Below are positions 3,596 to 29,950 of a stretch of DNA of 45,625 nt, in pieces. Where the stretch lies: positions 1 through 45,625 of IMG/VR virus record IMGVR_UViG_3300030376_008845. One strand, 5' to 3'. Origin of the DNA: a virus. Lineage: Duplodnaviria > Caudoviricetes. The stretch's first letter is position 1; each line of letters opens with the position of its first letter. A program made the position numbers and the translations under genes. The notes beneath the pieces were generated by a model. The model was not told the origin of the DNA. It saw nothing but the letters and a program-made list of their open reading frames with translations, and searched no databases.

Positions 3596-3622
3596 AAGAA
3601 AGGGCGCAATAGCGCCCTTTTC
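3596..3622. terminator. Bidirectional Rho-independent terminator
   Basis: AAGGGCGC-AATA-GCGCCCTT with A-run upstream and T-run downstream, between convergent genes. Confidence 0.88.
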
Positions 3623-3880: not shown

Positions 3881-3912
3881 TTTGGCTACCCAGGAGGCCT
3901 TTCGTATATTTA
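3881..3912 (+). promoter_or_regulatory. Bacteroidota-type promoter (-33/-7), probably early
   Basis: TTTG(3881)-20 nt-TATATTTA(3905), followed by leader TAAAAATAAAGGTTATG. Confidence 0.8.
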
Positions 3913-11711: not shown

Positions 11712-11910
11712 AATCAAGAAAAATAAGTCGAACTATGTACAAATTGAACTTCGTGAATATGAAGGACATAAGTATGTAGATGTAAGAGAATTTTACGATG
11801 CTGAAGATGGTAAACGTTTACCCACTAAAAAAGGTATTACATTCTCTCCTAAAGTATTAGAGGAAGTAATTGATGGTTTAACAATGCTAAATGAACAAAT
11901 AGATGGGTAA
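11695..11910 (+). CDS. PC4/p15-like ssDNA-binding protein
   Basis: YVDVREFY...LPTKKGITF signature. Confidence 0.85.
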   Translation: MEQIIEIKKNKSNYVQIELREYEGHKYVDVREFYDAEDGKRLPTKKGITFSPKVLEEVIDGLTMLNEQIDG

Positions 11911-12418
11911 ATATACATCAACAAAAGTATTTGACGGATTTAGTTGTGTTTTTCGTCAATGGAAAGCAGATACAACACATTGTAGATTCCTCCATGGATA
12001 TGGAGTATCATTTAAGGTATGGTTCGAAGGTGAATTAGACGATAGAAATTGGGTTTGGGACTTTGGTGGTATGAAAAGAGCTAAAGGACAAATCGATGGT
12101 AAATCTCCTAAGGAATGGATGGACTATATGTTTGATCATACTTTCTTAGTAGCCGATGATGATCCTTATGTAGAATCATTTATGAAAATGGACGAGATGG
12201 GTGTTGCACAAGTAAGAGTAATCCCAGCTACAGGAGCAGAACGTTTTGCTCAATTTATATTTGATAAATTAGATCCATTTATTAAAGAAGAAACAGAAGG
12301 CAGAGTAAAAATTACAAAAGTAGAATTTAGAGAACATGGTAAAAATTCTGCTATGTATGAAGCTGCTTCTTCAAATGAAAAATTAGAAACTATCTTAAGT
12401 AGTCTTAAGGATTTATAA
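11903..12418 (+). CDS. queD: 6-carboxy-5,6,7,8-tetrahydropterin synthase (QueD/PTPS family)
   Basis: HCRFLHGY, WVWDFG, FDHT, GAERFA, EFREH..NSA. Confidence 0.88.
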   Translation: MGKYTSTKVFDGFSCVFRQWKADTTHCRFLHGYGVSFKVWFEGELDDRNWVWDFGGMKRAKGQIDGKSPKEWMDYMFDHTFLVADDDPYVESFMKMDEMGVAQVRVIPATGAERFAQFIFDKLDPFIKEETEGRVKITKVEFREHGKNSAMYEAASSNEKLETILSSLKDL

Positions 12419-13203
12419 TGAAAGTATCACACGAAGTACCACGTTGTTTACTAAATAATAGTCACGAATTTAACGATTATGATTATTGTTTACCTCATCT
12501 TTTAGATCAAGATGAAAGATATAAAAATTTCTTTCTTAAATCTAAAGAAGAGGGACGTTATATTATCATGGATAATTCGCTTCATGAATTAGGACAAGCC
12601 TACGATCATAAACGTTTATTACACTGGATACAAGAACTAGAACCAGATGAATTTATTGTACCTGATGTTTGGATGAAACAAGCTCAAACTTGTGCCCAAG
12701 CAAAATATTGGCTACAATACAAATACCCTAAAAAAACCACTATTACAGCTGTAGTACAAGGTGAAGATGAAGAAAAGGCTTATTTGTGTGCTATGTTACT
12801 TAAAGATCTAGGATATGATAAACTTTGTATTTCGTATGGTGCTACTTGGTATGGTGATACTGCTTTAGATAAAGCACTTGGTAGAATAAAATTTGTAAAA
12901 AGTTTATTAAATAATTCCAATTTTAAAGATATTAAATTTCATTTATTAGGATGTGCTGTACCTCAAGAATTTGGTTGGTATAATAACCACCCTCAAATTG
13001 AATCAATTGATACATCAAATCCAATAATGTCTGCTTTAGAAAATGTAGATTATACTAGACAAGGTTTAGTAGAAAAACCTAAGGCAAATATGAATGAATA
13101 TTTCGATATTAACCCCTATAAAGTTAATTATGAGAATATTTTAAAAAATGTAAAACGTTTTCGTAAAATCAATGGATTAAAAAGTTATGGCAGAAATAAT
13201 TAG
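12418..13203 (+). CDS. TGT-fold transglycosylase, DpdA-like
   Basis: TGT-like motif order IMDNS, VPDV, VVQG, HLLG, SIDTS; translationally coupled to queD inside the que cluster. Confidence 0.72.
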   Translation: MKVSHEVPRCLLNNSHEFNDYDYCLPHLLDQDERYKNFFLKSKEEGRYIIMDNSLHELGQAYDHKRLLHWIQELEPDEFIVPDVWMKQAQTCAQAKYWLQYKYPKKTTITAVVQGEDEEKAYLCAMLLKDLGYDKLCISYGATWYGDTALDKALGRIKFVKSLLNNSNFKDIKFHLLGCAVPQEFGWYNNHPQIESIDTSNPIMSALENVDYTRQGLVEKPKANMNEYFDINPYKVNYENILKNVKRFRKINGLKSYGRNN

Positions 13204-13372
13204 ACACACATTTGGTTTTTGTGGTGAACATTTTCACCCAAATATTTGGCACCTTCTAATAGGAGGTTTTGGAATATCTACTATTTTTTCTTATATTGCG
13301 ATATATATAAAATGTAGATTTAAAGCGTTTGCCTATACGCTTAATAATACCTGGCAAAAATTAAATAAATAA
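13187..13372 (+). CDS. Small membrane protein whose 3' half overlaps the queC promoter and leader
   Basis: HTFGFCGEHFHPN followed by a TM segment. Confidence 0.5.
   Translation: MAEIIRHTFGFCGEHFHPNIWHLLIGGFGISTIFSYIAIYIKCRFKAFAYTLNNTWQKLNK
13268..13299 (+). promoter_or_regulatory. Promoter for queC
   Basis: TTTG(13268)-20 nt-TATATTGC(13292). Confidence 0.65.
13323..13357 (+). promoter_or_regulatory. Candidate cis-regulatory RNA (H-type pseudoknot) in queC leader
   Basis: P1 AAGCGT/ACGCTT; loop TTGCC can pair with GGCAA (13353-13357) after linker AATAATACCT; ends 17 nt before the ATG. Confidence 0.5.
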
Positions 13373-13374
13373 AA

Positions 13375-14190
13375 ATGGCAAAAAACGTCGTAGTATCCTT
13401 ATCTGGAGGGATGGATTCCTCAACACTATTACTTAGATGTTTATCTGAGTACGATCAAGTAACAGCAATTTCTTTTGATTACGGTCAAAAGCATAGAGTT
13501 GAACTTGAAAGAGCCCAACAATTAGTTGGTTATTTACTCCAAAATGGTTTAAATGTAAATTACCAAGTAATTAAACTAGATGGTTTAGTTAACTTGTTAA
13601 ATTCAGCATTAGTTCAAGGTGGTGAAGATGTTCCTGAAGGACATTATGAAGAAGATAACATGAAAGCTACTGTTGTTCCTAACCGTAATAAAATATTTGC
13701 TTCATTAGTACAAGCTGTAGCATTATCAGCTGCAAACGCTAATGGAAATGATACTGATATTGCATTAGGTATACATGCAGGTGATCATGCTATTTATCCT
13801 GACTGCAGACAAGAATTTAGAGATGCTGATGATGCAGCTTTTAGAATAGGTAACTGGGAAGCTGATAAAGTAGGTTATTTTACACCTTATTTAGAAACTG
13901 ATAAACTAGGAATTTTAAAAGATGGACAAGAATTGGTTAAAGAGCTCGGAATTGAATTTAATGAGGTGTACAAACGTACTAATACTTCATACAAGCCCTA
14001 TCCTAGCGGCAATAGCGATTACAAATCAGCTTCATCTGTTGAGCGCATTGAAGCATTTATCGATCTTGGTGTGGACGACCCTGTACAATATGAGGATGAA
14101 ACTGGACCGGTTGAATACAGTGTTGCGAGGTCTCACGTAGAAAAACTACTAGAAGAACATTCGTCAGTTGCTGTATTAGGTGATGCATAA
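13375..14190 (+). CDS. queC: 7-cyano-7-deazaguanine synthase (variant lacking the Zn-binding Cys)
   Basis: SLSGGMDS, FDYGQKH..E, TVVPNRN, YPDCR. Confidence 0.95.
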   Translation: MAKNVVVSLSGGMDSSTLLLRCLSEYDQVTAISFDYGQKHRVELERAQQLVGYLLQNGLNVNYQVIKLDGLVNLLNSALVQGGEDVPEGHYEEDNMKATVVPNRNKIFASLVQAVALSAANANGNDTDIALGIHAGDHAIYPDCRQEFRDADDAAFRIGNWEADKVGYFTPYLETDKLGILKDGQELVKELGIEFNEVYKRTNTSYKPYPSGNSDYKSASSVERIEAFIDLGVDDPVQYEDETGPVEYSVARSHVEKLLEEHSSVAVLGDA

Positions 14191-14729
14191 TGCAACAAGA
14201 ATTTTCCCCTATTTTAAATCTGGATATGTTTCCCCAAAAATTAATGGGGTTTACATATCCAGGGGATATTCAACCTTTTATAAATAAAGCTTATGAAATT
14301 GAATCTAATTACCCACATGAGGGATTAGAACATTTTAAAGGTATTATTTATACCTCTCCTTATTTTCTTGACCAAAAATTTTCAGAATTTATTCCTTTAA
14401 GAGAATATATAATAAAAATTGTAGAATTAAATTATCAATTTAAATGTCGTGTTCAAGATATGTGGATTAATATCTACAAAAAATATGGTTATAACGACTA
14501 TCACTCACATAAACCTTGCCCTCTAGTTGGGGTTTTATTTTTAAAAGTTCCTAGTAATCATTCTGGGTTAAGTTTTCATAATAAATTTAATCCTGAGCAA
14601 AAATACACTATTAATCCACCTCCTGGATCTCTTATATTATTTGAAGGAGACCAAGCCCACAGTTCACTTCCAAATCCTACAAATGAAGAAAAAATTATTA
14701 TAGCTTTTAATTTAGAAAAAATAGATTAG
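14190..14729 (+). CDS. 2OG-Fe(II) oxygenase-like protein
   Basis: MWIN...HSH...LILFEGDQAHSS...KIIIAFN. Confidence 0.78.
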   Translation: MQQEFSPILNLDMFPQKLMGFTYPGDIQPFINKAYEIESNYPHEGLEHFKGIIYTSPYFLDQKFSEFIPLREYIIKIVELNYQFKCRVQDMWINIYKKYGYNDYHSHKPCPLVGVLFLKVPSNHSGLSFHNKFNPEQKYTINPPPGSLILFEGDQAHSSLPNPTNEEKIIIAFNLEKID

Positions 14730-14780
14730 TTAAAAGAACACGTAATATTCATATATTTATTGCCACAAACCTAGCTATAA

Positions 14781-16424
14781 ATGTCTACACTTACAAATAG
14801 AACTATAAGGTCCACCTATGGACAACTTATACAATTAGAAGATACATTATTTCAAGATGGTTTTGGAACTGGTTCCCTAAGTGGTTCGTATGAACTTACT
14901 GGCTCTCAATTTATTAGTGGTACTCTTCATATTACTGGTAATCTGGAAGTTACAGGTACAGCATCTATTGGCTATCTAGAAACTATTTATGAAACCTCAT
15001 CTATAATATATAGTTCAGGTTCTACTAAATTTGGAGATGATACTTCAGACACTCATGAATTTACAGGAAGTGTTACAATTAGTGGTTCAGCTTATAGTGA
15101 AAATTGGAGTGGATCATTTAGTGGTTCATTTTTTGGTTTAATTGATTCCGCATCTAATGCTGAAAGAGCAGTTAGTGCTTCACAAGCAGATAGTGCTACT
15201 ACAGCATCTCATGCTTTAAATTCTTCAAATATTAATGTACAACAAGAAGAAAGTAGTGGAGCAGGTCATTATATTACTTTTGCACAATCAAATGTTGGAG
15301 AAACACAATTAAAAACAGATAGTGGTTTAACTTATATCCCACAAACTGATACTTTAAATGTTACTAAAGTAATAGGACAGTTAGAGGGTAGTGCTTCATA
15401 TGCTGAAACAGCATCTGTATTATTAGGCGCAGTAATTTCAGCTTCTCATGCTGAAACTGCTTCATTAGCAATTTCAACATCTGTAATTGTTCAAACTTCA
15501 TCTTCATTTGCTGCAAGTGGTGATGGTCCATTTACTGGTTCATTCTCAAGTAGTTTACATTCATTATTATCAGGTTCATTTACAGGTTCTTATACAGGTT
15601 CACTTACAGGATCTCTTATAGGTACTGCTTCTATAGCAGATTTTGCTACTACTGCTTCACACGCTTTATCAATTCAAAGTGGTTTAACATCTTCAAGAGC
15701 AACTAGTGCTTCAATAGCAGATGAATTATCACAATTAGCTACAGCTAGTTTTGCTGATACGGCTACTTTATCACGTGGTGGTTCAGGCTCATTTAGTGGT
15801 TCATTCCAAGGTGATGGAGAAAATTTAACAGGTATTAATAGCTATGTAGTTGCAAATAATGCTCAAGAAAGAGTAGTATTAGCAACATCCGAATCAGTAT
15901 CAGGTAGTGCAACATCAGGTTTAACTTATAATGGAACTACCTTTACTATAACAGGTAACGTTAACACGGGTCAAGGTGCTACTGAGATTTATTTAATGAA
16001 TCAAAATGTTCAAACAGGTAACAGTGTTCAGTTTAATGGGCTAGGAGTTGGTACTGCACCTTCAGGAGTTGTAGGAGCTATTCTAGCAACAAATGATGTA
16101 GTAGCATTTGCTTCTTCAGATGAAAGGTTAAAAGATAATTTAGAGCCAATTGGAAGTGCTATTGAAAAAGTAGGGCAATTAACAGGTTATACATTCGATT
16201 GGATTCCAATGGAAGGTATTCACGTTCATAGTGGACATGATGTAGGAGTTGTTGCTCAAGAAGTAGAAAAAGTACTTCCTGAAATTGTAGAAGATAGAGG
16301 GAATGGATATAAAGCTGTTAAATATGATAAATTAACAGCACTATTAATTCAGGCTGTTAATGAGCAACAACAACAAATTGCAGAATTAACAACTGAACTA
16401 AATTGGGTAAAAAATCGATTATAA
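14781..16424 (+). CDS. Tail fibre/spike-like protein with C-terminal peptidase S74 chaperone domain
   Basis: Ser/Gly/Thr-rich GS(F/Y/L)(S/T) repeats; SDERLK, GVVAQEVEKVLPE, VKYDKLTALLIQAV and terminal coiled coil. Confidence 0.85.
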   Translation: MSTLTNRTIRSTYGQLIQLEDTLFQDGFGTGSLSGSYELTGSQFISGTLHITGNLEVTGTASIGYLETIYETSSIIYSSGSTKFGDDTSDTHEFTGSVTISGSAYSENWSGSFSGSFFGLIDSASNAERAVSASQADSATTASHALNSSNINVQQEESSGAGHYITFAQSNVGETQLKTDSGLTYIPQTDTLNVTKVIGQLEGSASYAETASVLLGAVISASHAETASLAISTSVIVQTSSSFAASGDGPFTGSFSSSLHSLLSGSFTGSYTGSLTGSLIGTASIADFATTASHALSIQSGLTSSRATSASIADELSQLATASFADTATLSRGGSGSFSGSFQGDGENLTGINSYVVANNAQERVVLATSESVSGSATSGLTYNGTTFTITGNVNTGQGATEIYLMNQNVQTGNSVQFNGLGVGTAPSGVVGAILATNDVVAFASSDERLKDNLEPIGSAIEKVGQLTGYTFDWIPMEGIHVHSGHDVGVVAQEVEKVLPEIVEDRGNGYKAVKYDKLTALLIQAVNEQQQQIAELTTELNWVKNRL

Positions 16425-16425
16425 A

Positions 16426-16457
16426 TTTGGTTACCTAAAATAGTTATATTATATTGC
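16426..16457 (+). promoter_or_regulatory. Promoter for queE
   Basis: TTTG(16426)-20 nt-TATATTGC(16450), intergenic. Confidence 0.72.
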
Positions 16458-16475
16458 GACCAATTAAAAAAGGTC

Positions 16476-16507
16476 AAGTGACAGTAAAACCACTTAAAAA
16501 AATTAAC
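16476..16507 (+). promoter_or_regulatory. Candidate preQ1-I-like leader RNA upstream of queE
   Basis: AAGTG-ACAGTAAAAC-CACTT-AAAAAAATTAAC: 5-bp stem, 10-nt loop ending in C, A-rich tail reaching the start codon. Confidence 0.4.
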
Positions 16508-16509
16508 AT

Positions 16510-17283
16510 ATGCTTAAAAGGCTTGAGGACTATAATAAAGTCCTTCCCATCGTAGAAATTTATACCGCAGTTCAATCAGAAGGTTCTAGACAAGGCTATC
16601 CCACAATCGTAGTTCGTACTTCAGGATGCACCCACCGATGTTATTTTGGTGAAGGTGGCTGGTGTGATTCATGGTATACTTCAATCCACCCAGAAAAAGG
16701 AAAATATACATTTAATGATATAATTAAAATGTATGATGAAAATCCCCACATTGATGAAATGATGTTAACAGGTGGTTCTCCTACTATGCACCCTGCACTT
16801 GTAAACGAATTAACACACCTAGCCAATGAAAGAGATATTTTTATTACTATCGAGACTGAAGGAAGTCATTTTCTTCCTACTGATTATCCCATTAACCTTC
16901 TTAGTATTAGCCCTAAGTTTTCCAATAGTGTTCCTGTGGTTGGAGTGGAAACGCCTCAAGGAGCGATCACTGATGAAAAAATGGTTAAACGTCACAACAA
17001 ATTCAGAGTAAATAAAGATGCAATTAAAAAGAGTATTGATTATCATCATGATTACCATATTAAGCCTGTCCTTGACAAAGAGCTTTCAATGGTTCCAGAA
17101 GTTGAAGAATTCCTAGAAGCTCTAAAAATCCCAGATAATAAAGTATGGGCAATGCCTGCTGGTGATGTTAGAGAAAATCTATTTGAATCTTATCCTATAG
17201 TTATGGATTTTGTAAGAGATCGAGGATGGAGGTTTACAGGTAGAGCTCACATTATGGCTTTTAATGATCAAAGAGAAGTATAG
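16510..17283 (+). CDS. queE: 7-carboxy-7-deazaguanine synthase (radical SAM)
   Basis: EIYTAVQSEG, CTHRCYFGEGGWCD, LTGGSP, IETEG, SISPK, RAH. Confidence 0.92.
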   Translation: MLKRLEDYNKVLPIVEIYTAVQSEGSRQGYPTIVVRTSGCTHRCYFGEGGWCDSWYTSIHPEKGKYTFNDIIKMYDENPHIDEMMLTGGSPTMHPALVNELTHLANERDIFITIETEGSHFLPTDYPINLLSISPKFSNSVPVVGVETPQGAITDEKMVKRHNKFRVNKDAIKKSIDYHHDYHIKPVLDKELSMVPEVEEFLEALKIPDNKVWAMPAGDVRENLFESYPIVMDFVRDRGWRFTGRAHIMAFNDQREV

Positions 17284-22960: not shown

Positions 22961-24301
22961 GTGAAAAACTTCCTAAACTCTCTCCGTAAGGGATCATTTC
23001 CCTTTTTAATCGCATTCTCTGCCCTGTCAGTTAGTGCTTCGGCCGCTTTCTATAGTGTTAGCGGCTTGAGCAAACTCTTTGCTGGGGCTTCATTTGAAGT
23101 AATTATAATGGCTGGCTCACTTGAGGTAGCAAAACTAGTAATTGCTTCACTATTATATCAATATTGGGATACAATTAATAAAATACTTAGAGTTTATTTA
23201 TCTATAGCTACAGTAATATTAGTATTAATTACTAGTATGGGTATTTATGGATTTTTAAGTGCAGCTTACCAAGATACTTATAGGCAATTAACAATTAAAG
23301 AAAATCAGATATCATTTCTAGACCAAAAGAAAGAATTTTATGAGAAAGATGTGGCAAGATATGATGAGGAACTTGAAAGAATCTCTAATAACATTTCTAC
23401 TTTATCTGGTGCGAAAGCGTCCTCGATTCAAGTACGAGACACGACATCATCTACAGGCTTTAGACAAACAATTAGTACTACCGAACTTAGATTATCCCAA
23501 AAGCGTATTGATGTTGAAGAACAGAATAGAAAATCTGTTCAAGCAAAAAGAGAACAAGTAGCAGATAGTTTACAAAAATACCAACTTGCAATTTTAGATC
23601 TAGAAAATAATGCTGAAGTAGCAGGTGAATTAGGACCATTACAATACCTCTCAGGTTTAACAGGTATTGGTATGGATAAAATTATTAATTACTTACTTTT
23701 AGTAATTATTTTTGTATTTGATCCCTTAGCTATATCATTAGTAGTAGCAGCTAACTTTGCGTTTGCTAATGCTTTTCCTAAACGAGAAGAAGATGTTCTT
23801 GCTATTTTTGATAATGATGAAGAATATGAAGAATGGAAAGATGAAATCGAAAATGAAGTTGAAGAAGAAGTTATAGAAGATATAGAAGTAGAAGCTGAAG
23901 TAGTTAAAGCTGATATTAAAGAAGAAGAAATAAAAGTTAATGAACCTAAAACATATAAGCAAGAAAAACAAGATTTTTTATCTAAACTAAATGAAATTGA
24001 ATCCCGAATGGTAAGTGATAATACTATAGAAGACCAATCTAAAAAAATCTTAGAATTAGAAAACGAATTAACTCAAGCTCACGAAGAAATTAATGAATTA
24101 GATCTTGCAGCAACAAAAATTGTTGATTCAATTAAATATATGGATGACTATTTAAAAAATCATGGTCCTTATTATAATACACAAGATATAAATTGGGATG
24201 AACTAAAATTAGGTTTTGCAGAGGAAAGTAATTATATTGAGAAACGAAAATTAAGATCAAAACCTAAAGGTAAAGACGAAAATAATATAATAACTTATTA
24301 A
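22961..24301 (+). CDS. Membrane protein with coiled coil and acidic tail
   Basis: Three N-terminal TM helices (SLEVAKLV, TSMGIYGFLS), coiled coil, IIFVFDPLA TM, Glu-rich region. Confidence 0.75.
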   Translation: MKNFLNSLRKGSFPFLIAFSALSVSASAAFYSVSGLSKLFAGASFEVIIMAGSLEVAKLVIASLLYQYWDTINKILRVYLSIATVILVLITSMGIYGFLSAAYQDTYRQLTIKENQISFLDQKKEFYEKDVARYDEELERISNNISTLSGAKASSIQVRDTTSSTGFRQTISTTELRLSQKRIDVEEQNRKSVQAKREQVADSLQKYQLAILDLENNAEVAGELGPLQYLSGLTGIGMDKIINYLLLVIIFVFDPLAISLVVAANFAFANAFPKREEDVLAIFDNDEEYEEWKDEIENEVEEEVIEDIEVEAEVVKADIKEEEIKVNEPKTYKQEKQDFLSKLNEIESRMVSDNTIEDQSKKILELENELTQAHEEINELDLAATKIVDSIKYMDDYLKNHGPYYNTQDINWDELKLGFAEESNYIEKRKLRSKPKGKDENNIITY

Positions 24302-24303
24302 AA

Positions 24304-24909
24304 ATGTATCCATTTATTCCCCGTATTTGTAACGCTATTACCCCTGTAGTAGATGAACACTTTCTATCTTATAATGAAATTCAAAAAGTTAGTAATCTCC
24401 TCCAAAACATTCCTTATGAAAGAGGTAGTGTAATGTCAAAAAATGAATTAAATACTTTTGATGAAACTGAAATGAGGAGAAGTAATGTTAAATGGATTCC
24501 CCATACACCAGAGTGGTCATGGTTATACTATATAATTAGGGATAAAGTAGATTTTATTAATAAAAATACTTGGAATTTTGACCTTACTTCAATTATTGAA
24601 AGTATTCAATACACTGAATATAAAGGTGATGAAAAAGGGCATTATGATTGGCATATAGATATAGGAAATGATATTGTTACAAATTGTAGAAAAGTATCTA
24701 TAAGTATATTATTATCCTCCCCAGATGAATATGAAGGAGGAGAATTATTAGTAAATGATGGGGGCTCTATTGGTGATTCATATTCCCCTCCTAAAAAACT
24801 AGGATCAGCTGTAATATTCCCTTCTTATTTACTCCATAAAGTAAACCCTATTACTAAAGGAATTAGAAGATCTTTAGTTTTATGGATGGGGGGTTCTACT
24901 TTTAAATAA
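24304..24909 (+). CDS. 2OG-Fe(II) oxygenase (PKHD-type-like)
   Basis: YDWHID...RKVS...YEGGEL...FPSYLLHKVNPITKGIRRSLV. Confidence 0.9.
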   Translation: MYPFIPRICNAITPVVDEHFLSYNEIQKVSNLLQNIPYERGSVMSKNELNTFDETEMRRSNVKWIPHTPEWSWLYYIIRDKVDFINKNTWNFDLTSIIESIQYTEYKGDEKGHYDWHIDIGNDIVTNCRKVSISILLSSPDEYEGGELLVNDGGSIGDSYSPPKKLGSAVIFPSYLLHKVNPITKGIRRSLVLWMGGSTFK

Positions 24910-24925
24910 AGTAATAATATAGGTT

Positions 24926-26701
24926 ATGTATAAAAAGATTTATGAGCAGGGTAATAAGAGACAAACAGGCAAGGAAAATACCCATTTAATCCATCTATGG
25001 ACAGATGAAGGTTATGAAAAAATTGAATGGGATAATTATGCCTATAGAGAATGTCATGAAGATGAGGCAACAGCTAAAGGTCTAAATGGTGAACCTCTAG
25101 TACGTACCCACAATTGGGACAGAACTACTAATAAACTCCACTTTGGAGACATATCAGCTCACCAAAAATTCTTAATTGAAAAATATGGTACTGATGATAG
25201 ACCTTCTACTACTTGCAAAGAAGTATTCTTTGATATTGAGTGTGAAATGGGTGGAGCACTTACAGAAGAATATATTTCAAATGCACCTAAACCCATAACT
25301 TCAATTGCTTGGTACGATAAACAAGCCGATCAATGGGCGATTGTTATTTTAGATAAAAAAGGACAATTAAAACGTACTAAGGCTAAAAATAAAGAAATTA
25401 TACCTTTTAGACATGAAGCTGATCTATTAGACTGTTTCCTATCCAGAATGGAAGAAATAGAACCAGATATGCTTGTAGGATATAATAGTGACTACTTTGA
25501 TATTCCTTACTTATATTATAGAATGTGTATTGTATTAGGTGATAGACAAGCTAAACGTTTATCTCCTATTGGTATAACTAAACATGCCAAAAATAACCAA
25601 TATTGGTATAAAAAAGATATGTACGTTGACATCGCTGGTGTTGAATCCATGGATTATATGCGCTTACATAAAAAGTATGGGTGGGAAGATGAACCAAGTT
25701 GGAAACTCGATGCTATCGGCGAAAAATACGTAGGTATCAATAAAATTGAATATGAGGGCACATTAGATGATTTATTTGAAACTGATATTCAAAAGTTTAT
25801 ACAATATAACTTTGTTGATGTTGAAATATTAGTTGAATTAGATAAAAAATTACAATATCTAGCATTAACAAGAAACTTAGCACATAAAGGTAAAGTAAAA
25901 TATAGTGAAGTATATGCTTCATCTAAAATACATGATGGTGCTATTTCAGCTTATTTATTATCTCAAGGGATTGTTCCACCAGGTCGTCCTCATGGAGAAA
26001 AGAAATTAAATTACGCCGGAGGATACTTATTTTGTCCTAAAGCTGGTCTTTATAAATATATGTTTGATGAAGATTTAACTTCACTATACCCTTCAATTAT
26101 TATGTCTCTTAATATTGGAAGAGAAACGATTGTAGGTAAAATTGTACCTGATACTTTACCTAGTAAATTAATTGAATATGGTCCTTATGGAGAAAAACCA
26201 GATCGTAATAATTATTTAGGTTTAAATGATTTAAAAGAAATGGATCCTGAAGAAGAACTTATAGTTATGGATCCTAATAGAAATGGTAATCCAAGAGCTA
26301 AAGTATCTGTTGAAAAACTAATCAATATGATAGAAAAAAATAATTATGCTCTAGCTGCAAATGGCACATTTTTTAGAACAGATAAAGAATCTGTATTATC
26401 AACTATTTTAAGTAAATGGTTTGATGAAAGAAAAATGTATAAAGATGAAATGAAAAAATCATATAAAGCAGGAGACACTGAAAAAGGTGAATATTACCAT
26501 TTAATGCAATATACAATGAAAATTCTACTTAACTCATTATATGGAGCTACAGCATTAAATTCATTTAGATATGGAATGCCTTTATCAATACTATCAGAGG
26601 CAATTACATTATCAGGATGGCGTATTATACAAGAATCAGCATTAGTTGCTAATCGTCATATGAATAAAATTTTAAGGAACGAAATAAAATTAAAAATATA
26701 A
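24926..26701 (+). CDS. polB: DNA polymerase family B, N-terminal subunit (exonuclease, motifs A and B)
   Basis: FDIE (ExoI), GYNSDYFD (ExoII), YNFVDV (ExoIII), DLTSLYPSII, KILLNSLYG; motif C absent. Confidence 0.93.
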   Translation: MYKKIYEQGNKRQTGKENTHLIHLWTDEGYEKIEWDNYAYRECHEDEATAKGLNGEPLVRTHNWDRTTNKLHFGDISAHQKFLIEKYGTDDRPSTTCKEVFFDIECEMGGALTEEYISNAPKPITSIAWYDKQADQWAIVILDKKGQLKRTKAKNKEIIPFRHEADLLDCFLSRMEEIEPDMLVGYNSDYFDIPYLYYRMCIVLGDRQAKRLSPIGITKHAKNNQYWYKKDMYVDIAGVESMDYMRLHKKYGWEDEPSWKLDAIGEKYVGINKIEYEGTLDDLFETDIQKFIQYNFVDVEILVELDKKLQYLALTRNLAHKGKVKYSEVYASSKIHDGAISAYLLSQGIVPPGRPHGEKKLNYAGGYLFCPKAGLYKYMFDEDLTSLYPSIIMSLNIGRETIVGKIVPDTLPSKLIEYGPYGEKPDRNNYLGLNDLKEMDPEEELIVMDPNRNGNPRAKVSVEKLINMIEKNNYALAANGTFFRTDKESVLSTILSKWFDERKMYKDEMKKSYKAGDTEKGEYYHLMQYTMKILLNSLYGATALNSFRYGMPLSILSEAITLSGWRIIQESALVANRHMNKILRNEIKLKI

Positions 26702-28472: not shown

Positions 28473-29030
28473 ATGGAGAAATTTATTCAAGTACATGATA
28501 ATATTTTTGATTCAACCCTTCAAAATGAAATAGAAAACTTTTGTTTAGGTTTATCTTATAAATTTACTGATACTTCAACAACTATATCAAAAGATCAACC
28601 TTATTGTCCTATTTTTGGCCATGTATTTCTCCCAGATAAAAAATATTCAACTGATTTTTTAAGTAATATAGTATATGGGTTATCTTCATTTATAAAAAAG
28701 CCAATATTACAAGTTTTACAAGGAAGAGCCTATATCCAGGTCCCTAATAATTCAATATCTATTCATCCACCCCATGTTGATTTAAAATTTCCTCATTGGG
28801 TATGTTTATATTACGTAAATGATAGTGATGGAGATACAATATTTTATAAAGATGATAAAAAAACAGAAATAAAAAGAGTATCTCCCAAAAGGGGGAGAGT
28901 TGCTTTTTTTGATGGAAGTATATATCATAGTGCTTCTACTCCTACTAAACACCATAGAATGGCAATCAATATTAGTTTTTTATCTTTAATCCATATGAAT
29001 GAAGAAATAAATGCAATGCATAATCTATGA
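28473..29030 (+). CDS. 2OG-Fe(II) oxygenase (paralogue A)
   Basis: PHVD...LYYVNDSDGDT...PKRGR..FFDG..YH...RMAIN. Confidence 0.85.
   Translation: MEKFIQVHDNIFDSTLQNEIENFCLGLSYKFTDTSTTISKDQPYCPIFGHVFLPDKKYSTDFLSNIVYGLSSFIKKPILQVLQGRAYIQVPNNSISIHPPHVDLKFPHWVCLYYVNDSDGDTIFYKDDKKTEIKRVSPKRGRVAFFDGSIYHSASTPTKHHRMAINISFLSLIHMNEEINAMHNL
28794..28831 (+). repeat. 38-bp perfect direct repeat, copy 1
   Basis: CATTGGGTATGTTTATATTACGTAAATGATAGTGATGG, identical to 30298..30335. Confidence 0.85.
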
Positions 29031-29950
29031 AACATTTAGAGACAACACCTTGGTTTATATGCGATGAAGATGATACGAATTTATGTGCTTATGTAGATAC
29101 AGATTCGAATTATTTTAATGCTGAACCTCTACTATTACATTTATATCCTGATTTTGAACAAAAAACAAATGAAGAAAAGGATGAAATATTAGAGAAGGTC
29201 GCTTTATATTATCAAGATCTTATTTCTGATCATTATGATAATCTTGCTAGAGATTGTTTTAATGTTACTGACCATAGATTGGAGATGAAAACAGAGTGTG
29301 TTATTCGTTCTGCTTATTTTAGAGCCACTAGACGTTATGCTCAGTGGATTACTAAACAAGAAGGTATTGAAAAAGAATCATTAGATGTTAAAGGATTAGA
29401 ATATAAAAAATCTAATTTCCCTAAAGTATTTGGTAATTTTTTTAAACAAGTAGTTGAAGATGTTTTAAAAGGAACACAACAAAGCGAAATTGATACTCGT
29501 ATACTTGATTTTAAAAAGAAGATATTAAGCGACATGCCCATTGGAGAATTAGGTAATCCTACGGGAGTTAAAACGTTAAATAAATACATTGAACGCAAGC
29601 CCGTAGGTGGAGAAGCATTTACTATTATACGTAAAGGTGCACCTGCCGCTGTACGAGCTACTATTAAATACAATGATTTACTTAAATATTGGAAATTAGA
29701 TAACCAATATGAAACAATTGTCCAGGGTAGTAAAGTTAAATGGATTTATTTAAAAAAGAATCCATATAATATTGAAGCACTAGCCTATCTTGATTATAAT
29801 ATGCCTCCTAAAATTAAAGAATTTTTAGATAAATTTGCTGATAAAGAAAAGGTGTTTGATACTATATTATTAAATAAATTAGAAGGATTTTATGATGATT
29901 TAGGATGGAAGTTAGTTACAAATCCCTATGTCAACCAGTTTTTTATATAA
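29027..29950 (+). CDS. polB: DNA polymerase family B, C-terminal subunit (motif C, thumb)
   Basis: YVDTDS, RRYA, VKGLEYKKS; C-terminal VNQFFI resembles a clamp-binding tail. Confidence 0.92.
   Translation: MKHLETTPWFICDEDDTNLCAYVDTDSNYFNAEPLLLHLYPDFEQKTNEEKDEILEKVALYYQDLISDHYDNLARDCFNVTDHRLEMKTECVIRSAYFRATRRYAQWITKQEGIEKESLDVKGLEYKKSNFPKVFGNFFKQVVEDVLKGTQQSEIDTRILDFKKKILSDMPIGELGNPTGVKTLNKYIERKPVGGEAFTIIRKGAPAAVRATIKYNDLLKYWKLDNQYETIVQGSKVKWIYLKKNPYNIEALAYLDYNMPPKIKEFLDKFADKEKVFDTILLNKLEGFYDDLGWKLVTNPYVNQFFI

Follow-up and report, generated by a model that had tools for sequence, protein, structure and literature searches.

Two different leaders before phage queE and queC: a putative preQ1-I-like variant and a covarying pseudoknot

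Class I riboswitches for 7-aminomethyl-7-deazaguanine (preQ1-I) of type II (RF00522; T. tengcongensis, B. subtilis; PMC11625349) are the closest described systems to the leader of queE (motif E) in the IMG/VR virus record IMGVR_UViG_3300030376_008845, a linear record of 45,625 bases with a completeness estimate of 31%, called the window throughout; the same window carries a different leader before queC (motif C). In the part of PMC11625349 drawn on here, the preQ1-I pocket requires a specificity C, U6, A30 and a G-C floor, the contact with U6 being essential throughout class I, pocket changes have precedent as marks of new ligands, and all three class I types bind the same ligand, preQ1, with no variant described. 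Like these aptamers, motif E has a short first stem (P1) closed by G-C, 'AC' before the 3' strand, an A-rich third loop (L3) and a predicted H-type second stem (P2) beside the start codon, and it precedes a que gene. It differs in having an A for the pocket U, an extra base in both L2 and L3, an A-U ceiling pair, a P1 of 4 bp and no Shine-Dalgarno site, and in being phage-borne and seen only without QueF. Variant ('snuggler') guanine-I riboswitches (for xanthine, 2'-deoxyguanosine and 8-oxoguanine; PMC9295807 and PMC10556655, in the parts drawn on here) resemble motif E in combining a fixed ligand-contact change with a changed gene context. Their scaffold differs from that of motif E.

SAM-II and guanidine-III are small H-type pseudoknot riboswitches, and T4 gene 32 (gp32) has an autogenous pseudoknot operator. 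Motif C resembles these three in topology, size and placement in a 5' leader, but it has a core of its own (a U-A closing pair, a U in L2, AYACY in L3, and U.U or C-G as the first P2 pair) and occurs with queC only. The glutamine riboswitch of marine phage Melnitz (PMC9004378) is a case of riboswitch-like control in a phage genome, as here, although the window's leaders stand on a DNA-hypermodification pathway; in the part of that paper drawn on here, phage riboswitches are called rare and preQ1 is not mentioned. Literature searches, with supplements outside their scope, returned no description of these leaders, which large motif catalogues could hold.

The joint explanation slightly favoured here, from sequence comparison, is that the window holds two different conserved leaders, i.e., an altered preQ1-I-like leader before queE and a separate covarying pseudoknot before queC. 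Homologous loci were taken from seven protein searches (the best 80 loci per search, of ~300 to 600 candidates each) and overlap unless called distinct; counts from the three pattern scans refer to the matches listed.

The queE leader, its canonical counterparts and QueF

The features around the start of queE are the following.

16426-16456, plus strand: putative promoter-like site, 20 nt 5' of motif E
16458-16475, plus strand: small extra hairpin GACC/GGTC, 5' of motif E, predicted by folding and present only in the window's close relatives
16477-16508, plus strand: motif E, preQ1-I-like variant; the AUG is at 16510
16510-17283, plus strand: queE, radical S-adenosylmethionine synthase of 7-carboxy-7-deazaguanine (CDG); PF04055; phrog_2076, E 2.5e-49

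P1 of motif E pairs 16477-16480 with 16491-16494, with G16480-C16491 as its floor. A16481 replaces the pocket U, the specificity base is C16490, the A-rich L3 spans 16496-16502, and the predicted P2 consists of A16486-U16503, U16485-A16506 and G16484-C16507. The arms of the extra hairpin are changed yet complementary in four relatives (L002, L003, L004 and L014; read by eye).

The pattern AGTG-N10-CACT-NN-AAAAAA-T was found in 65 of 133 queE loci, and the end of queD falls inside the upstream stretch in 60 of the 68 loci without it. Among the 120 pattern matches listed, 118 precede queE and two are too short to tell; 103 of the 120 lie between queD and queE, a position that points to translational control, and TAYATT is missing within 60 nt in 71 of 94 contexts. 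There are 53 distinct cores, 43 of which were also found without the DNA pattern. The loop starts with A in all 43 pattern-free cores and is 10 nt long in 42 of them, and another count gave A in 39/39. The AGTG/CACT stem and the G-C floor are unchanged in 37/37 aligned cores and the 'AC' before the P1 3' strand (A16489-C16490 in the window) is present in 48/48, although the search regex required the G-C floor letters and partly fixed the specificity C. Tail positions 3-8 are all A, corresponding to the A-rich L3 of preQ1-I with an adenine before the ceiling pair. As for P2, loop A6 faces tail U9 in 53/53 cores, G4-C13 is present in 36/37, and pair 3:14 in 31/37 (three cores with C-G); 15 of the 16 cores lacking G4 also lack C13, a joint loss. 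The AUG of the G4 forms begins between tail positions 15 and 18, which places the P2 3' strand over the last bases before it. In five loci (L013, L078, L005, L125 and L053), the 5' half of motif E is formed by the last queD codons and stop, and the G4-C13 pair is absent.

Related phages carry a canonical form, which has the G-C floor, the first-loop U, 'AC' before the 3' strand, the A-rich L3 and a que gene downstream, i.e., every class I feature given in the part of PMC11625349 drawn on here. One canonical site, AGTG-TCGTAGCAC-CACT-TTAAAAAC, heads an operon of a small open reading frame (ORF), queD and queE, and stands directly before queE in 3 loci; it has the same AGTG/CACT stem and TTAAAAA tail as motif E. 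A second site precedes folE, also in phage immuto (L400, ~24364-24390; NC_055915.1 32367-32385), and further canonical leaders are found in L655, L656, L658, L659, L661 and L675. Of the 137 canonical matches listed, 47 have queD as the next recognised gene, 46 folE, three queE and one a gene resembling orf61; a further 29 are too short to assign, and the 11 in other contexts include 9 with a broken stem. The canonical stem covaries among five types (GGAG/CTCC, TGAG/CTCA, TGTG/CACA, GGTG/CACC and AGTG/CACT). The search pattern contained the pocket letters, and both gene context and stem covariation lie outside it. A descriptor scan found no preQ1-I-like leader at the window's folE. An order-level cellular search of 87 genomes found no canonical match and a single weak one that lacked the stems; it is a weak test, the host group probably being a different one.

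In comparison with the canonical leader, motif E has U1 changed to A and one base added in L2 and in L3, and the ceiling pair is A-U in 53/53 cores instead of G-C, an A-U ceiling also occurring in one U-type folE leader (G012). Motif E is very probably homologous to preQ1-I. The first-pass annotation had noted that the queE copy keeps the specificity C and lacks the first-loop U, and this holds: judged by its canonical homologs, motif E is a variant descended from a preQ1-I-like leader and not a member of the class, its pocket U being absent. The Rfam preQ1-I model (RF00522), proposed there as a check, matched neither site, motif E failing even at E<=10, and motif C had no meaningful Rfam match at that threshold; with Rfam 15, the 9-21 kb stretch and the individual leaders yielded nothing beyond weak, unrelated matches far below gathering scores. 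These negatives mean little for either motif, because even the canonical immuto leader goes unscored by RF00522, which therefore misses canonical phage copies.

The two forms divide according to QueF. Among 28 long records, 12 have QueF, and the strict canonical pattern occurs in 10 records, all QueF-positive (G003 and G012 have further U-type forms). Motif E occurs in 10 of the 16 records lacking QueF and in none with it; three of these (G006, G015 and G016) look like near-copies, and a pattern match in G020 was dropped from the count as a chance match. A further 38 records, selected by their leader type, showed QueF in 18/18 canonical carriers and 0/20 motif E carriers, as predicted beforehand, which brings the combined figures to 28/28 canonical and 0/30 variant records. 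Where the mapped records show both genes, QueF is 5-7 kb away from queE, and all 7 canonical carriers less than 40% complete have it. Neither of two sets of redundant loci (248 and 229) had a locus with both leader forms. A domain scan of 70 ORFs in the window found no QueF.

FolE places the two groups on either side of a single branch (98/96); QueE requires 4 changes and QueC 6. Genes close to the cluster differ as well: a split family B polymerase in the E group (8/8), DpdN and QueF in the QueF group (9/9). Five near-complete QueF-less records (3 with motif E) showed no ArcS domain and one QueC match each. Over a range of about 20 kb, no modifying enzyme particular to motif E carriers was conspicuous. 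By pathway logic, the end base of the QueF-less phages would be 7-cyano-7-deazaguanine (preQ0). Leader type would also predict the presence of QueF, and hence the likely modified base, in uncultured phages.

The queC leader

The features around the start of queC are the following.

13187-13372, plus strand: orf61, a small conserved ORF of 61 codons whose stop lies 2 nt before the queC ATG
13268-13298, plus strand: putative promoter-like site inside orf61, TTTGG-N-TATATTG, 25 nt upstream of the queC pseudoknot
13324-13355, plus strand: motif C, queC-leader H-type pseudoknot, from homolog conservation and covariation
13375-14190, plus strand: queC, preQ0 synthase; PF06508, E 2e-39; PDB 2pg3 and 3bl5

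P1 of motif C pairs 13324-13328 with 13337-13341 (AGCGT/ACGCT) and is followed by two free bases, 13329-13330 (L1). P2 pairs 13331-13333 with 13353-13355 (GCC/GGC), adjoining a U.U at 13334/13352; L2 is AU (13335-13336), and L3 ends in ATACC (13347-13351).

Motif C is present in 130 of the 136 queC loci with enough upstream DNA. Of the 119 viral pattern matches listed, 101 immediately precede queC, and the genes upstream of them are of many kinds. Two more are too short, one (L230) lies before a gene inserted upstream of queC, and the remaining 15 lack P1 (read by eye). At the protein level, 161 of 208 distinct QueC proteins (identity 58% or more) are preceded by one of four motif C forms, and 22 of the 28 long records have one strong match, with or without QueF. 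Its 3' end lies mostly 11 to 25 nt before the AUG and, where a Shine-Dalgarno site is present, a few bases before that site.

The pairing is well supported. In 71 distinct cores, P1 shows 40 double-sided changes, against 9.9 +/- 2.4 in shuffles (0/500 as high). Mapped on the QueC tree, joint changes amount to 12/17, 15/16 and 14/14 for P1 pairs 2, 3 and 4, and to 2/2, 5/5 and 6/9 for P2, counted by structure, MAFFT having misaligned 4 GGAT-type rows of the 71-core alignment. P2 takes the forms ACC/GGT, GRCCC/GGGTC, ACTCC/GGAGT and GTTCC/GGAAC in more distant phages, and GAAAGC/GCTTTC, AATAGC/GCTATT, GAATGC/GCATTC and AAAGAC/GTCTTT in a Shine-Dalgarno-using clade. Hence the stems vary with pairing kept and G-U pairs accepted, while the single-stranded U and AYACY are kept. 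The search patterns required at least 3 pairs per stem and fixed the closing U-A, the L2 U, AYACY and two P2 pairs of the main form, so the invariance of those columns is partly by construction. Homologous leaders, which the first-pass annotation had named as a check, thus proved conserved for both genes, with covariation clear for motif C and weak for motif E.

The first-pass annotation overlooked that the queC element lies inside orf61. The C-terminal end of orf61 reads in frame through motif C in 35/35 homologs with the motif downstream, with a spacer that keeps the frame (6 or 9) in 34 of them. However, 116 of 142 motif C contexts have no orf61, the spacer there being most often 8 (62/116) and the frame broken in 64/116, and motif C is intergenic in the cultured immuto phages. 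With most contexts free of orf61 and a spacer commonly of 8, the RNA is independent of coding. Ribosomes finishing orf61 would melt the motif C knot on long transcripts, and a transcript starting at the promoter-like site 13268-13298 would carry it intact.

Motif C shares with preQ1-I its H-type pseudoknot upstream of a que gene. The G-C floor is absent, the closing pair being U-A, and so are the specificity C and a conserved first-loop U: the last L2 base is U, and L1 varies freely. Among cellular sequences, 75 QueC homologs of 46-58% identity gave 0 matches to the main/GGAT regex, and 3 of 80 cellular QueC loci matched the motif C regex, all on contigs of metagenome-assembled genomes (68-80% identity) that are probably phage.

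Two unusual cases were seen. In L230 (1195-1640), two motif C forms are separated by ~380 nt: a 7-codon ORF and the inserted gene follow the main form, and queC follows the other, the AGGTT form; this looks like a recombination relic. In the Shine-Dalgarno clade (L404, L562-L577), motif C of the queC leaders is longer, and its P1 (AGTGGTT/AACCACT) together with the TTAAA after it is similar to motif E, either by chance or by shared ancestry.

Proposed mechanism and rival explanations

We consider it somewhat more likely than not that motif E senses a ligand. If it does, preQ0 would be the somewhat likelier choice, as the end product, and CDG, the QueE product, a rather unlikely second. A guanine-faced metabolite other than preQ1 would pair with C16490 on the G-C floor and stabilise P2, whose 3' strand would cover the last 2 to 6 bases before the AUG. 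In Flavobacterium, mRNA structure and an A at -3 tune initiation (PMC6847099, in the part drawn on here); as flavobacterial ribosomes would need an unstructured start region, a closed P2 would lower queE initiation. In QueF-carrying phages, the canonical form would play the same role with preQ1 for queD-queE and folE.

Motif C is almost certainly a structured cis-regulatory RNA, and the chances that it senses a ligand are evenly balanced. This separate, uncatalogued pseudoknot, whose stems covary, likely serves as a further feedback switch. Since motif C occurs in both lineages, its signal is expected to be one that they share: preQ0, CDG or QueC itself. As preQ0, which QueC makes in either lineage, accumulates, folded motif C would hinder loading of the small ribosomal subunit (30S), as the title of PMC10018353 indicates for a separated preQ1-I switch. 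Both elements would then exert feedback control on deazaguanine synthesis, as the first-pass annotation had proposed. More tentative, and somewhat doubtful, is a full set of RNA sensors, with canonical preQ1-I where preQ1 is made, an altered-specificity variant (preQ0 or CDG) without QueF, and a new queC riboswitch class in both. If true, a natural pocket variant tracking QueF loss would be a ligand-switched class I member, allowing a direct test of specificity change in a roughly 32-nt aptamer, and phages would use RNA to feedback-control the DNA hypermodification that they use against restriction.

Several observations weigh against this reading. For motif E, 16 of 53 cores lack G4, most of them having A there and an earlier queE start, and several overlap the queD stop; its own covariation is weak, as P1 is invariant and the 3 double-sided changes are equalled in 8/500 shuffles, and some slid controls score as well. 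Pair 3:14 is A.A in the window, more distant queE leaders have motif E in 19 of 121 cases, and the A-rich tail also resembles a Flavobacterium start region (PMC6847099, in the part drawn on here). According to the part of PMC11625349 drawn on here, the affinity of type II aptamers for preQ0 is only 17-fold below that for preQ1, and U6 contacts N9, a feature common to both ligands; the U-to-A change is therefore not an obvious preQ0 adaptation, and it may mark a dead pocket, or a ligand of other ring shape such as 6-carboxytetrahydropterin (CPH4). Motif E is absent from 6 of the 16 QueF-less long records, the variant records are for the most part incomplete (the prediction set has just one complete record among its 20 motif E carriers), and, as judged from the trees and neighbouring genes, the QueF split is one contrast between two lineages exchanging que coding sequences. 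As for motif C, 47 of the 208 distinct QueC proteins go without it. Ligand binding, transcription start and regulation are predictions from sequence for both leaders.

The rival that survives best, although unlikely, takes motif E as a ligand-blind descendant, in which A16481 stacks or pairs with C16490 and fills the pocket, leaving a constitutive pseudoknot or an element bound by ribosomal protein S1 or the ribosome that would give queE a fixed translation rate after QueF loss. The loss of a contact as general as U6 agrees with it, as do the degraded P2 in the A4 forms and a tail doubling as an A-rich start region of the kind described in PMC6847099, in the part drawn on here. A decaying pocket, however, would hardly keep its A, specificity C and 10-nt loop near-invariant (A 43/43, 10 nt 42/43), and L2 and L3 each gained one base alongside the U-to-A change.

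Quite unlikely is that one or both leaders are protein-bound translational operators, e.g., QueC binding its own pseudoknot in autogenous control. Motif C would suit such a role, being tied to queC alone in both lineages and under two translation styles, with variable stems, a kept single-stranded U and AYACY, and no preQ1-I pocket base; yet the same phages use riboswitch-like leaders on other genes of the pathway, and domain and PDB searches found no RNA-binding domain in the window's QueC.

It is very improbable that the two leaders act as inverted-repeat operators at the DNA level, or that they reflect coding constraint from orf61 or from an upstream ORF with a GTG start before queE. The invariant AGTG-N10-CACT of motif E is indeed an inverted repeat, but its asymmetry matches the canonical RNA; orf61 does run in frame through motif C, but the motif C stem changes in sequence with pairing kept and G-U accepted, occurs intergenically in immuto, and has a frame-breaking spacer in many contexts outside orf61. 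The GTG frame at motif E meets stops or other frames among homologs (read by eye). Both a conserved upstream ORF in motif E and a DNA operator were rejected on these grounds.

The weakest rival, one shared riboswitch architecture controlling both genes, is scarcely credible: the superficial 5-bp/10-nt match of the two hairpins and the AGTG...AACCACT that one distant clade's queC pseudoknot has in common with motif E stand against a different consensus, stem register and second stem, each motif being single-copy in the window and bound to its own gene. Such a shared, covarying architecture had been the central claim of the first-pass annotation. Its letters and coordinates are exact, with AAGCG-TTTGCCTATA-CGCTT-AATAATAC from 13323 at queC and AAGTG-ACAGTAAAAC-CACTT-AAAAAAATTAAC from 16476 at queE, and the two 5-bp hairpins with 10-nt loops exist, but the conserved queC form has an 8-nt loop and a second stem (GCC/GGC) that had been overlooked. 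The 'compensatory' C-G versus T-A pair compares non-homologous stems, as the conserved ones are AGCGT/ACGCT at queC and AGTG/CACT at queE. The first-loop U credited to queC is in fact part of the closing U-A pair of motif C P1, found in 161/161 leaders, with both letters fixed by the search patterns. Hairpins of this kind are not rare (103 on the plus strand of the window, against 89 +/- 9 in 60 Markov simulations). The post-hoc pattern AAGnG-N10-CnCTT occurs 3 times, with 0.07 expected. Its third match is a GC-rich perfect hairpin at 3600-3619, after a gene and terminator-like. Judged by their homologs, the resemblance between the queC and queE hairpins is a coincidence, and they are not homologous.

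Gene setting in the window

The other pathway genes of the window are the following.

11903-12418, plus strand: queD, 6-carboxytetrahydropterin synthase; PF01242, E 1e-15; TIGR03367 below cut-off
12418-13203, plus strand: DpdA-like DNA transglycosylase, related to DpdA3 of phage immuto
18619-19311, plus strand: folE, GTP cyclohydrolase I; PF01227

The closest cultured relatives are the Flavobacterium phages vB_FspM_immuto (QueC 69%, QueE 73% identity), and the DpdA-like protein has 34% identity to the annotated immuto DpdA over 259 aa (E 2e-48), with a weak NF041059 match. The only cysteine in the window's QueC is the one in YPDCR, the C-terminal part being free of them; the PDB alignments end at residue 171. 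Bacterial QueC carries zinc cysteines in its C-terminal part, so the window's protein possibly belongs to a zinc-free subfamily. QueC homologs of 46-58% identity are present in marine bacteria and archaea.

The first-pass annotation had given each gene its own promoter, and promoter-like sites (TTTGG-N17..20-TATATTG, at 13268-13298 and 16426-16456) do stand 5' of both stems, as sequence matches only. The motif TTTG(G)-N17..20-TATATT(G/T) recurs in the window at 3881, 6187, 13268, 16426, 32804 and 35933; a generic sigma-70 scan gave 53 sites, fewer than the 66.8 in shuffles. Assembled contigs of relatives occur in marine RNA runs (word share <0.2), which cannot give strand, start or level and were not used as evidence.

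The window's queD is separated from queE, unlike in most relatives, and a tail-fibre-like gene with an S74 chaperone domain lies inside the que cluster (14781-16424). A 446-aa ORF at 22961 had no useful match in protein and domain searches. The family B DNA polymerase is in two pieces (24926-26701 and 29027-29950) with several genes between the halves, and about ten separate 2-oxoglutarate-Fe(II) oxygenase genes are scattered over 10627-38965.

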